Of a stretch of 9,294 bases of DNA, positions 2,833 through 6,364 are shown piece by piece. Location: the IMG/VR virus record IMGVR_UViG_2695420698_000011. One strand, given 5' to 3'. How positions within the stretch are numbered: position 1 is the stretch's first letter; every line of letters begins with the position of its first letter. The notes beneath the pieces were generated by a model. That model saw only the letters and a list, made by a program, of their open reading frames with translations. It did not search any database and had not been told where the DNA came from. The stretch comes from a virus (Duplodnaviria; Heunggongvirae; Uroviricota; Caudoviricetes). A program made the translations under genes and the position numbers.

Positions 2833-2926
2833 ATGACCGAGCGCATAGAATTTGTTTTACCTTACCCGCCGACGGTGAACACTTACTGGCGTCGTCGTGG
2901 CAGCACATATTTTGTATCAAAAGCCG
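2833..2926 (+). pseudogene. 5' fragment of a second rusA allele (MTERIEFVLPYPPTVNTYWRRRGSTYFVSKA), cut off by a 7-N gap
   Basis: ATG 2833 directly follows the ydfU stop (TAA 2830-2832); the 31 codons parallel the start of the intact rusA at 3467 (LPYPPTVNTYWRRR...YFVSKAG) with nucleotide differences; sequence ends at N 2927-2933. Confidence 0.6.
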
Positions 2927-2933: not shown

Positions 2934-3037
2934 ACAATTGCGATCTTTTCCTGTGTGGTACGCCGTCTGCGTTTCTCCGGCCCTAAGACATCAATCATCT
3001 GTACTCCAATGACTAGTCTAAAAACTAGTATTAAGAC

Positions 3038-3057
3038 TATCACTTATTTAAGTGATA
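3038..3057. promoter_or_regulatory. perfect 9-2-9 palindrome TATCACTTA-TT-TAAGTGATA, candidate protein-binding (operator-like) site
   Basis: Arms are exact reverse complements; half-site TATCAC resembles lambdoid operator half-sites; preceded by two ACTAGT palindromes at 3012-3017 and 3024-3029. No U-tract follows, so it is unlikely to be a terminator. Confidence 0.3.
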
Positions 3058-3224
3058 CTGGTTGTCTGGAGATTCAGGGGGCCAGTCTACGGACATTTTC
3101 TGCCTGTGGACCAGGAAAGTGCACGGGTGCTTTCCACTCCCATGAAGCCCGGCAATCCGCGCAGATACAGTAATAAACGAACTGACAGCAGTAAGATGGA
3201 GCGTTTCTTTTGAACAACCAGACA

Positions 3225-3467
3225 ATGACTTTTACCCCTGAACAATTGCGTAAACACGCGCAGGAAATGCTGCGTCATGCTGAACAACTCGAAAAAACGG
3301 GCATAACAAAAGACGCTATCCGTAAAGATATGGTACCCGCGCTTCGGGAACTGATGCAGGCGAAGCATCGCGCACAGAAAGCAGTAGATGAGCTGGTGGA
3401 CTGTGTGGCAGAGCTGGAAACCAGAGTCGGAAAGTTTGAAAAACTGGTGCAGGAGGTGCTGCGCTGA
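3225..3467 (+). CDS. hypothetical small coiled-coil-like protein, 80 aa from ATG 3225 (the track starts at TTG 3210)
   Basis: ORF track; stop TGA 3465-3467 overlaps rusA ATG 3467; N-terminus MTFTPEQLRKHAQE is paralogous to the ORF at 405. No clear SD. Confidence 0.5.
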   Translation: MTFTPEQLRKHAQEMLRHAEQLEKTGITKDAIRKDMVPALRELMQAKHRAQKAVDELVDCVAELETRVGKFEKLVQEVLR

Positions 3468-3841
3468 TGCGCCATGAGTTTATTTTACCTTATCCGCCGA
3501 CGGTGAATACTTACTGGCGACGTCGTGACAACACATATTTTGTATCAAAAGCCGGTGAGCGTTATCGCCGGGATGTGGCGCTTATTGTCCGTCAGCAGCG
3601 ACTGAAATTAAGCCTGTCCGGAAGACTGGCGATAAAGATTATTGCAGAGCCACCGGATAAGCGCCGTCGTGACCTGGACAATATCCTGAAAGCACCACTG
3701 GATGCACTGACACATGCGGGAGTGTTAATGGACGATGAGCAGTTTGATGAAATCAATATCGTTCGTGGTCAGCCAGTATCTGGTGGACGTCTGGGGGTGA
3801 AGATTTACCCCATAATGCATGAAGAGCAGGTCAAAAAATGA
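3467..3841 (+). CDS. rusA: RusA-family Holliday junction resolvase, 124 aa
   Basis: Translation has the RusA hallmarks as I recall them (LPYPPTVNTYWRRR..., RRDLDNILKAPLDALT, GVLMDDEQF) and typical size; stop overlaps the Q start at 3838 (ATGA). Confidence 0.85.
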   Translation: MRHEFILPYPPTVNTYWRRRDNTYFVSKAGERYRRDVALIVRQQRLKLSLSGRLAIKIIAEPPDKRRRDLDNILKAPLDALTHAGVLMDDEQFDEINIVRGQPVSGGRLGVKIYPIMHEEQVKK

Positions 3842-4398
3842 AACTGGAAGATTTACCGAAATACTACTCCCCAAAATCCCCTTGCCTGACCGATGCATCG
3901 GCCTCAACGTCAAAAGATGCGCTGAGTATCACTGATGTGATGGCCGCGCAGGGCATGACACAGAATCGGGCTGAGATGGGGTTTTCTGCGTTCCTGGGGA
4001 AAATGGGCATCAGTATGAATGACAGGGCGCGGGCAACAGAATTACTGGCAGATTATGCACTCAGTCGGTGCGATCGTGTGGCGGCGTTGAGAAAACTTCC
4101 GGCAGAAATAAAACCGGTAGTGATGCGCATTATGGCTTCGTACGCTTTTGAGGATTATGCCCGCAGCGCAGCGAGTAAAAAGCAGTGCCCTTGTTGCTAT
4201 GGGGAAAAATTTATTGAAAGCGTAGTTTTTACAAACAAGGTCCAGTATCCGGATGGTAAGCCGCCGGTATGGGCAAAGTGTACGAAAGGTGTGTATCCGT
4301 CTTACTGGGAAGAATGGAAAAAAGTCAGGGAGGTGGTAAAAGTTGCCTGTCCGGAGTGTGGCGGAAAGGGTGAGNTTCCTTGGGAAAATGGGCATTAG
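3838..4398 (+). pseudogene. Q antiterminator copy A: N-terminal 179 codons intact to 4374, then frame runs through an ambiguous base (4375) into a diverged repeat
   Basis: ATG 3838 coupled to rusA stop; translation identical to the 4672..5427 ORF over the shared region up to CPECGGKGE; base 4375 is n and the downstream sequence restarts an internal part of the same gene. Confidence 0.6.
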
Positions 4399-4623
4399 TA
4401 TGAATGACAGAGAGCGGGCAACAGAATTGCTGACAGAATATGCACTCAGTCGGTGTGATCGCGTGGCGGCGTTAAGAAAACTCCCGGCAGAAATAAAACC
4501 GGCAGTGATGCGTATTATGGCTTCGTATGCGTTTGAAGATTATGCCCGTAGCGCGGCGAGCAAAAAACAGTGCCCCTGCTGTCACGGAAAAAAATTTATT
4601 GAAAGCGAGGTTTTTACAAACAA
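4376..4623 (+). repeat. diverged internal Q-gene fragment (copy B), bounded by single n at 4375 and 4624
   Basis: Aligns to 3991-4238 of copy A with scattered substitutions (protein ARATELLADY to ERATELLTEY, CYGEK to CHGKK); looks like an allele from another prophage. Confidence 0.7.
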
Positions 4624-4671
4624 NCCGATGCATCGGCCTCAACGTCAAAAGATGCGCTGAGTATCACTGAT

Positions 4672-5427
4672 GTGATGGCCGCGCAGGGCATGACACAGAA
4701 TCGGGCTGAGATGGGGTTTTCTGCGTTCCTGGGGAAAATGGGCATCAGTATGAATGACAGGGCGCGGGCAACAGAATTACTGGCAGATTATGCACTCAGT
4801 CGGTGCGATCGTGTGGCGGCGTTGAGAAAACTTCCGGCAGAAATAAAACCGGTAGTGATGCGCATTATGGCTTCGTACGCTTTTGAGGATTATGCCCGCA
4901 GCGCAGCGAGTAAAAAGCAGTGCCCTTGTTGCTATGGGGAAAAATTTATTGAAAGCGTAGTTTTTACAAACAAGGTCCAGTATCCGGATGGTAAGCCGCC
5001 GGTATGGGCAAAGTGTACGAAAGGTGTGTATCCGTCTTACTGGGAAGAATGGAAAAAAGTCAGGGAGGTGGTAAAAGTTGCCTGTCCGGAGTGTGGCGGA
5101 AAGGGTGAGGTTTCCACCGCCTGTAAGGATTGCCGTGGGCGTGGTGTCGCCATTCATCGTGAAGAGTCGGTAAAACGTGGTATGCCTGTTATCAGAGACT
5201 GCCAGCGTTGTGGTGGTCGTGGCTATGAAAGACTACCATCAACGGAGGCATTTAATGCTATATGCGAGGTGACAAACCAGATAACACGCGCGTCATGGGA
5301 AAAAACAGTTAAGAAATTCTATGATGCGCTGGTGACTCGGTTTGATATTGAAGAAGCATGGGCTGAGCGGCAGTTAAAAAAGGTAACTAGGTTGATTTTT
5401 CCGGAATCTGTGGTAAATTCGTCATAA
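4672..5427 (+). CDS. Q-like late antiterminator, 251 aa ORF (copy C), with four CxxCxGxG-type zinc-finger repeats
   Basis: Intact ORF to TAA 5425-5427 immediately upstream of a lambda-like PR'/pause element; sequence from 4625 repeats copy A 3888-4374 exactly as far as I can read. The authentic protein probably starts at ATG 3838 (about 283 aa if the duplication is artifactual). Family call rests on position and size. Confidence 0.7.
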   Translation: MMAAQGMTQNRAEMGFSAFLGKMGISMNDRARATELLADYALSRCDRVAALRKLPAEIKPVVMRIMASYAFEDYARSAASKKQCPCCYGEKFIESVVFTNKVQYPDGKPPVWAKCTKGVYPSYWEEWKKVREVVKVACPECGGKGEVSTACKDCRGRGVAIHREESVKRGMPVIRDCQRCGGRGYERLPSTEAFNAICEVTNQITRASWEKTVKKFYDALVTRFDIEEAWAERQLKKVTRLIFPESVVNSS

Positions 5428-5431
5428 CGAT
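5392..5431 (+). promoter_or_regulatory. PR'-like late promoter with sigma70-dependent pause element (-35 TTGATT, extended -10 TGgTAAATT, then AACGATGGG at about +1..+9)
   Basis: TTGATT 5392-5397, 16-nt spacer, TAAATT 5414-5419 preceded by TG, then 6 nt and AACGAT 5426-5431. This matches my recollection of lambda PR' (GGGTAAATT-6nt-AACGATGGG). Confidence 0.65.
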
Positions 5432-5466
5432 GGGCGTTTTATGCCTGACGTTAGAAGAGTTTCTAC

Positions 5467-5490
5467 AACCCGCCGCCGAGCGGGTTTTTT
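5467..5490 (+). terminator. rho-independent terminator (tR'-like): AACCCGC-CGCCGA-GCGGGTT plus TTTTTT
   Basis: GC stem 5469-5473/5480-5484 with a 6-T run 5485-5490, about 40-65 nt downstream of the proposed PR' start. Confidence 0.75.
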
Positions 5491-5610
5491 ATGACTGAAA
5501 TCGCGTCAGTACAGTAAACGCGCTGGTGGCGGTGAATACCTGTCTTTCAGCTTGCTGGCTTTTTCGACAAGAGTTATTGGTGTGTCACGTTAACCGGAAA
5601 AGGAAAAGAC

Positions 5611-5808
5611 ATGCTAAAACAGCAGGATATGACAGAAACCGCCAGAGTGGTGTTTAATGAATTAAGCGTTACCGAACCGGCGACAGTCGGGGAGATAGCG
5701 CAGAATACTTACCTTTCACGCGAACGCTGCCAGTTAATACTGACCCAGCTGGTTATGGCGGGTCTGGCAGACTATCAGTTCGGTTGTTACAGACGCCTTC
5801 CGCAGTGA
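5611..5808 (+). CDS. small winged-helix-like DNA-binding protein, 65 aa
   Basis: ORF track; AAGGA 5600-5604, 6 nt before ATG 5611; segment ATVGEIAQNTYLSRERCQLILTQLVMAGLADY looks like an HTH recognition helix plus wing; stop lies inside a terminator hairpin. Confidence 0.55.
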   Translation: MLKQQDMTETARVVFNELSVTEPATVGEIAQNTYLSRERCQLILTQLVMAGLADYQFGCYRRLPQ

Positions 5809-5820
5809 AGGCTTTTTTAT
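5795..5820 (+). terminator. rho-independent terminator: GCCTTC-CGCAGT-GAAGGC plus TTTTTTATTT
   Basis: Perfect 6-bp GC-rich stem with the stop codon in the loop, followed by a T-run. Confidence 0.7.
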
Positions 5821-5866
5821 TTGTGGTAAATGGGCGGCTGGTGGGTGTTAGGGGCACCCACCAGCC

Positions 5867-6364
5867 NNNNNNNNNNNNNNNNNNNNNNNNNNNNNNNNNN
5901 NNNNNNNNNNNNNNNNNNNNNNNNNNNNNNNNNNNNNNNNNNNNNNNNNNNNNNNNNNNNNNNNNNNNNNNNNNNNNNNNNNNNNNNNNNNNNNNNNNNN
6001 NNNNNNNNNNNNNNNNNNNNNNNNNNNNNNNNNNNNNNNNNNNNNNNNNNNNNNNNNNNNNNNNNNNNNNNNNNNNNNNNNNNNNNNNNNNNNNNNNNNN
6101 NNNNNNNNNNNNNNNNNNNNNNNNNNNNNNNNNNNNNNNNNNNNNNNNNNNNNNNNNNNNNNNNNNNNNNNNNNNNNNNNNNNNNNNNNNNNNNNNNNNN
6201 NNNNNNNNNNNNNNNNNNNNNNNNNNNNNNNNNNNNNNNNNNNNNNNNNNNNNNNNNNNNNNNNNNNNNNNNNNNNNNNNNNNNNNNNNNNNNNNNNNNN
6301 NNNNNNNNNNNNNNNNNNNNNNNNNNNNNNNNNNNNNNNNNNNNNNNNNNNNNNNNNNNNNNNN
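5867..6364. other. 498-nt N run (masked or unsequenced)
   Basis: Literal n characters; hides the 5' part of the methyltransferase gene and anything between the terminator and that gene. Confidence 0.95.

Follow-up and report, generated by a model that had tools for sequence, protein, structure and literature searches.

Lambdoid prophages of Shigella sonnei and Escherichia coli carry a single-copy gene for the antitermination protein Q (Pfam family PF03589), and a related gene in the Stx2a phage LC567834.1 is annotated quuQ. Lambdoid prophage alleles may be mosaic, and recombination between co-resident or related lambdoid phages is known to leave sharply bounded patches of divergence. A second precedent concerns draft assemblies, where scaffolders such as ABySS, SSPACE, and ALLPATHS-LG mark an overlap that they cannot resolve with one N. 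In ALLPATHS-LG scaffolds, overlapping contigs are reported as negative gaps (PMC5368935), and scaffold regions with a lone N gave no PCR product and were taken to be misassembled (PMC6907397). The literature supports the single-N convention only indirectly, no formal statement of it having been found.

Here we analyze a 9,294 nt window (the whole stretch of DNA of IMG/VR virus record IMGVR_UViG_2695420698_000011, to whose first letter all coordinates refer), in which Q is written as two exact copies of one segment (A and C) flanking a diverged internal copy (B), with a single ambiguous base at each junction. Comparison of its letters with those of complete chromosomes and N-free contigs leads us to conclude that this arrangement is very probably a scaffolding artefact, in which two similar prophages of one genome have been strung together at N's, and that the true Q gene is single-copy.

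Results

A string comparison of the window with itself showed that copy A (3890-4374, plus strand), which forms the last 485 nt of scaffold piece 2, has the same letters as copy C (4625-5109, plus strand), which opens piece 4. The two are therefore a direct repeat of 485 nt at 100% identity and an offset of 735 (repeat family D1 in the window repeat search), which is far beyond chance. The initial annotation had described this repeat as 3888-4374 and 4625-5111; the repeat itself is real in the letters, but each segment was given an end that is 2 nt off, and as written the two are not identical. Copy B (4376-4623, 248 nt, plus strand) is scaffold piece 3. Its gap-free alignment to 3991-4238 has 29 mismatches (88.3% identity), which bears out the earlier description of B as a diverged interior of the same gene and replaces the count of about 20 substitutions that had been made by eye. 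When the differing codons were read in B's native frame, 20 were synonymous and 7 were non-synonymous. The only non-ACGT characters in the Q region are the N at 4375 and the N at 4624, and they lie exactly on the two junctions, as had been noticed from the sequence.

Neither junction preserves the reading frame. The frame of A leads to a codon start at 4375 and the native frame of B to one at 4376, so that A and B are out of frame; the frame of B leads to a codon start at 4625 and the native frame of C to one at 4624, which agrees with the initial annotation that B is out of frame with C. As written, the region contains three ORFs on the plus strand: 3838-4398 (186 aa), a truncated Q; 4343-4660 (105 aa), a Q fragment; and 4672-5427 (251 aa), which begins at a GTG. 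The 251-aa product has no entry in the public protein collection.

When one copy of the repeat and B are removed, 3838-4374 joins to 5110-5427 in an 855-nt ORF for a 284-aa protein. This protein is identical to a public entry, "antitermination protein [Shigella sonnei]", that is present in at least 1000 contigs. It matches Pfam PF03589 (Antitermination protein Q) in two stretches with a score of 183.6 bits (E = 7e-55; the gathering threshold is 26.7), and it has a sub-threshold match to the DnaJ-type CXXCXGXG zinc finger. The pieces that flank B thus overlap exactly, and collapsing them restores a known intact gene. The collapsed gene is no different from the single-copy PF03589 genes of S. 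sonnei and E. coli lambdoid prophages, and its 284-aa product is identical to the Shigella entry, whereas in the window as it stands the gene falls into three out-of-frame pieces.

The surroundings of the collapsed gene are those expected of a late regulator. Directly upstream lies rusA (3467-3841; Pfam RusA), which overlaps Q by 4 nt. The Q stop codon (5425-5427, plus strand) falls within piece 4, and a consensus scan, which is the sole basis for this feature, placed an intrinsic-terminator-like hairpin and T run at 5467-5486 (plus strand), 40 nt downstream of Q. By analogy with the organisation of lambdoid phages, the position of this hairpin would fit that of a late-operon terminator acted on by Q. 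With rusA upstream and the terminator-like hairpin downstream, the product of the collapsed gene is predicted to be an antiterminator in its usual late-regulatory context.

The window contains six N runs (2927-2933, 4375, 4624, 5867-6364, 8121-8242, and 8613-9192), which, apart from the two single N's, are 7, 498, 122, and 580 nt long. The 498-N run at 5867-6364 corresponds to just 385 nt in three N-free contigs (L080, L097, and L106), which indicates that the N runs are gap sizes estimated by a scaffolder and that this estimate was too large. We also considered that the N runs might be database masking, and this was rejected, because intact relatives have only 385 nt in place of the 498 N's. 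The same run sits within a gene for an N6/N4 DNA methyltransferase.

We then compared the window with complete chromosomes, and found that its pieces belong to two prophage loci, which we call P1 and P2. An exact match to the RusA protein retrieved P1 from ten complete chromosomes of 4.8-5.0 Mb (loci L001-L010), and an exact match to the DUF968 protein encoded at 1774-2832 of the window retrieved P2 from ten complete chromosomes (loci L131-L140). The gene order in P1 is IS21, an 85-aa ORF, rusA (124 aa), and Q (284 aa); that in P2 is DUF968, rusA (126 aa), Q (273 aa), a 65-aa ORF, and the N6/N4 methyltransferase. A single 273-aa Q was called in 10/10 P2 loci and a single 284-aa Q in 9/10 P1 loci; in the remaining one (L003) a 1-nt indel prevented the call, and the single-copy alignment is the same. 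Two assemblies appear in both lists, CP104423.1 and CBDDMI010000001.1, the latter having the same loci, of which P1 shows slightly more mismatches. CP104423.1, a complete chromosome that looks like S. sonnei, carries P2 (L131) at 1.857-1.868 Mb and P1 (L001) at 2.527-2.540 Mb, about 670 kb apart and both free of N.

The pieces between the N runs switch back and forth between the P1 and P2 loci of CP104423.1. Piece 1 (1-2926) has its best match in P2, at 100% identity (L131:3228-6153; L097:7385-4460). Piece 2 (2934-4374, plus strand), which contains the 85-aa ORF, rusA, and Q up to its nucleotide 537 (3838-4374), is 100% identical to P1 in L001 (5468-6908) and in nine other complete chromosomes. 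Piece 3, that is, copy B, is on the plus strand an internal Q fragment of P2; it is 100% identical to L131:6590-6837 and to L097:4023-3776, where it lies inside a single, N-free 273-aa Q. The first part of piece 4 (4625-5866), from 4625 to 5492 on the plus strand, matches P1 (L001:6424-7291) with one mismatch, at 5429, and its last part, 5400-5866, matches P2 exactly. Piece 5 (6365-8120) is 99.5% identical to P2 and 96.6% identical to P1 of CP104423.1 and 100% identical to L106; because it is imperfect on both loci of CP104423.1, the source must differ from that strain or have a third paralogous prophage. Piece 6 (8243-8612) is 100% identical to P2 (L131).

The two single N's are therefore the sites of scaffold joins between loci. 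At 4375, piece 2 (P1) is joined to piece 3 (P2), and the Q sequence jumps back from position 537 to position 154; at 4624, piece 3 (P2) is joined to piece 4 (P1), and it jumps back from position 401 to position 53. Both junctions lie on gap placeholders within a demonstrable scaffold. B is an exact copy of a paralog that CP104423.1 carries about 670 kb away from its P1 locus, and the segments on either side of B, 2934-4374 and 4625-5492, fall on overlapping coordinates of L001 (5468-6908 and 6424-7291). The IMG/VR contig L097, which is N-free, contains piece 1, B, and piece 6 with order and orientation kept, around one 273-aa Q; in L080, also N-free, the P1 path is contiguous and has one Q.

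Two details of the P1-type pieces were noted in these alignments. Piece 2 starts at 2934 (L001:5468), and in the complete chromosomes an IS21-type istB gene ends about 60 nt before that point (at L001:5409), which suggests a contig break at an IS copy, as is typical for short-read assemblies. Piece 4 is P1-type up to the site of an 8-nt indel at 5389 and exactly P2-type over 5400-5866. L001 differs from the window at 5429 and is without 5493-7130 altogether, and in the complete chromosomes examined the Q of P1 is not followed by a methyltransferase, while L072 and L080 are arranged like the window; piece 4 thus looks either chimeric or different by strain.

We searched other sequences for the two junctions with 51-nt queries (25 nt, the N, and 25 nt), whose halves alone cannot reach E = 1e-5. 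The A-to-B and B-to-C queries had zero matches in 5,426 complete E. coli genomes, whereas the positive control, a 51-mer within B with a central N, had matches in 2,493 of the 5,426. As a pattern in which the N is a wildcard, the A-to-B junction was absent from 32 million genome contigs, 2.9 million viral contigs, and 241 million metagenome records, and the B-to-C junction was absent from the 32 million genome and 2.9 million viral contigs; the wildcard matches a literal N locally, and these collection scans exclude only junctions with a defined base. Within the collections as scanned, the junctions thus occur in no independent assembly.

Alignment of longer stretches gave a similar picture. 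Against the 5,426 complete E. coli genomes, 4300-4700 aligned as three pieces that fold onto 488 bp of one gene among the matches listed, and in the phage collection it again aligned as three pieces on one gene among the matches listed. Megablast records, among the matches listed, span about 1678 bp per 2403 query bases, which is suggestive of no tandem. Among 125 loci that matched A, B, or C, more than one copy of any of them was found only in L072. A genuine tandem duplication should have defined bases at its junctions and recur in related genomes; the window has no defined base at either junction, and in the collections searched we found no recurrence.

We also compared the A-type Q with the Q of L072 that carries the B-type patch. 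All 31 differences between them fall in 3982-4240 (259 nt); on both sides of this patch the two are identical, upstream over 3400-3981 (about 580 nt) and downstream from 4241 to the position that corresponds to 5318 (about 340 nt). B, which corresponds to 3991-4238, lies within this divergent patch. In 630 complete E. coli records, a gene named "antitermination protein" matches the B-type sequence at 99% identity or more, and at 100% in 25/25 of the matches listed. The P2 allele (L097/L131 type) has further differences from the A type: in rusA, at 3882, 3883, 3891, and 3912, and at 5389, where it has an 8-nt insertion.

The patch at 3982-4240 suggests that Q genes of prophages have recombined or undergone gene conversion with one another in the past. 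It resembles the mosaic alleles of lambdoid prophages in being bounded (259 nt), in its 31 differences, and in the mostly synonymous character of those within B; it differs from what is written in the window in that the patch belongs to two separate genes and there is no tandem array. This sharply bounded patch is ordinary lambdoid mosaicism, and it is the sole biology that remains in the finding. This patch between near-identical Q alleles would also be the cause of the assembly confusion, and because B lies inside the patch, with identical flanks, it behaves like one branch of a bubble in an assembly graph.

The other repeats in the window, at rusA (2841-2926) and tRNA-Arg (8243-8346), likewise adjoin N runs. 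A 5' fragment of a second rusA, of P2 type (2833-2926, plus strand), ends piece 1 and runs into the 7-N join at 2927-2933, which cuts it after 94 nt; it is 88% identical to 3469-3554. In L131 and L097, the 126-aa rusA runs on uninterrupted and is followed by the 273-aa Q. The fragment at 2833-2926 ends at the switch from P2 to P1 and is another artefactual "pseudogene".

A 104-nt repeat of 94% identity was observed between 7330-7433 and 8243-8346, the second copy starting right after the 122-N run, and each copy contains a tRNA-Arg (tct) gene (7344-7420 and 8257-8333). In the N-free contig L080, both tRNA-carrying pieces fall on overlapping coordinates, 3629-3731, and the tRNA-Arg duplication is probably a scaffolding artefact that mixes paralogous prophages.

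Discussion

The initial annotation favored a mis-joining of paralogous Q genes, and our results uphold that reading: the pieces alternate between P1 and P2, the collapsed protein is a known one, B is an exact piece of the second prophage, and the junctions were absent from the collections searched. The join resembles the lone-N and negative-gap joins of ALLPATHS-LG, in which a single N stands between overlapping or unrelated pieces; the overlap here is 485 nt.

We infer that the artefact arose as follows. The source would be one genome, sequenced as a short-read draft and most likely that of S. sonnei or a very close relative, with at least two lambdoid prophage remnants whose late-regulatory regions are near-identical. 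Q itself would be mostly near-identical between the two loci, the main internal difference being the patch of about 260 nt (3982-4240). From such a genome, an assembler may have produced a contig ending in P1-type Q (at 4374), a contig starting at the equivalent of 3890, and a short contig of the P2 patch (B). Both P1 contigs would pass through the A-type interior, which would account for their 485-nt overlap, and B would be the alternative interior. Read pairs would tie all three contigs to the same shared flanks, and the scaffolder may then have set them in a row, missing both the 485-nt overlap and the nature of B as an alternative branch, and put one N at each join, where contact or overlap was expected and none was found. 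The true locus would hold one 855-nt Q (3838-4374 plus 5110-5427), and B's place would be about 670 kb off, in the other prophage. The length of the overlap counts against this sequence of events, as 485 nt exceeds the overlap of k-1 expected from a plain de Bruijn assembler. The imperfect match of piece 5 to both loci of CP104423.1 is a second point against it. The contig ends (3890 and 4374, with those of B lying 9 nt and 2 nt inside the outermost allele differences) gave no consistent k-mer size.

The same artefact could instead have come from a mixed sample, such as two strains, a contaminated culture, or a metagenome bin, with the P2-type pieces contributed by a second strain. The B-type Q is common in E. 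coli, as its at least 99% identity in the 630 complete records attests, and piece 5 is perfect on neither locus of CP104423.1; both observations would suit such a mixture. A second strain is needless, however, since CP104423.1 alone holds both loci, with window pieces that match them at 100%, and CBDDMI010000001.1 is nearly alike. We consider a mixed sample improbable, and if it were the source, there would still be no real structure.

That the window records a real rearrangement, in which a partial tandem duplication of Q and the insertion of a paralogous Q fragment inactivated the late regulator and the N's are low-quality calls, is formally compatible with the sequence as written and with the propensity of lambdoid prophage Q regions to recombine (compare the patch at 3982-4240), but we regard it as scarcely credible, because it requires at least two independent illegitimate events that both fell on the sole two ambiguous bases of a 2.9-kb stretch, because flanks that are 100% identical over 485 nt around an insert that is an inter-paralog patch are characteristic of assembly graphs rather than of recombination, because both junctions are absent from the 5,426 complete E. 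coli genomes and the large contig collections, because Q is single-copy in 20/20 loci from complete chromosomes, and because two distant loci alternate in the remainder of the scaffold as well. The fallback offered in the initial annotation, a partial tandem duplication and recombination hotspot in the late regulator, thus found no support, its junctions occurring nowhere else in what we searched and complete chromosomes having a single Q. Were the structure real, it would be a modest case of prophage decay in which the late regulator is rearranged, with the illegitimate recombination that silences Q caught midway.

Under the scaffolding explanation, the arrangement is not a real feature, and its significance is one of quality control only. 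Gene callers applied to this scaffold would list a truncated Q, an orphan fragment of Q, and a Q shortened at its N terminus, and scaffolds of this kind would inflate copy-number and pseudogene statistics for prophage regulators. Lone N's in draft scaffolds of Enterobacteriaceae flag collapsed or interleaved lambdoid prophage paralogs, and draft scaffolds should be cut at lone N's ahead of any analysis of duplication or recombination.

The lone-N artefact appears to recur in public draft assemblies, as in L072 and L064, which are IMG/VR contigs from isolate drafts. L072, itself a scaffold, has lone N's at 1952 and 4268, exactly where the alignments of its Q paralogs end, and chains three rusA-Q segments. 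L064 has a lone N at 1610, exactly on the 8-nt indel that separates P1 from P2.

One minor feature of piece 1 concerns the P2 prophage itself. The 70-aa ORF at 984-1196, which adjoins a Rem-family ORF, is the gene that carries a Pfam HOK_GEF match in L131-L140 (at about 4211-4423 of the locus), and it is predicted from this match to be a hok/gef-type toxin gene of the P2 prophage.
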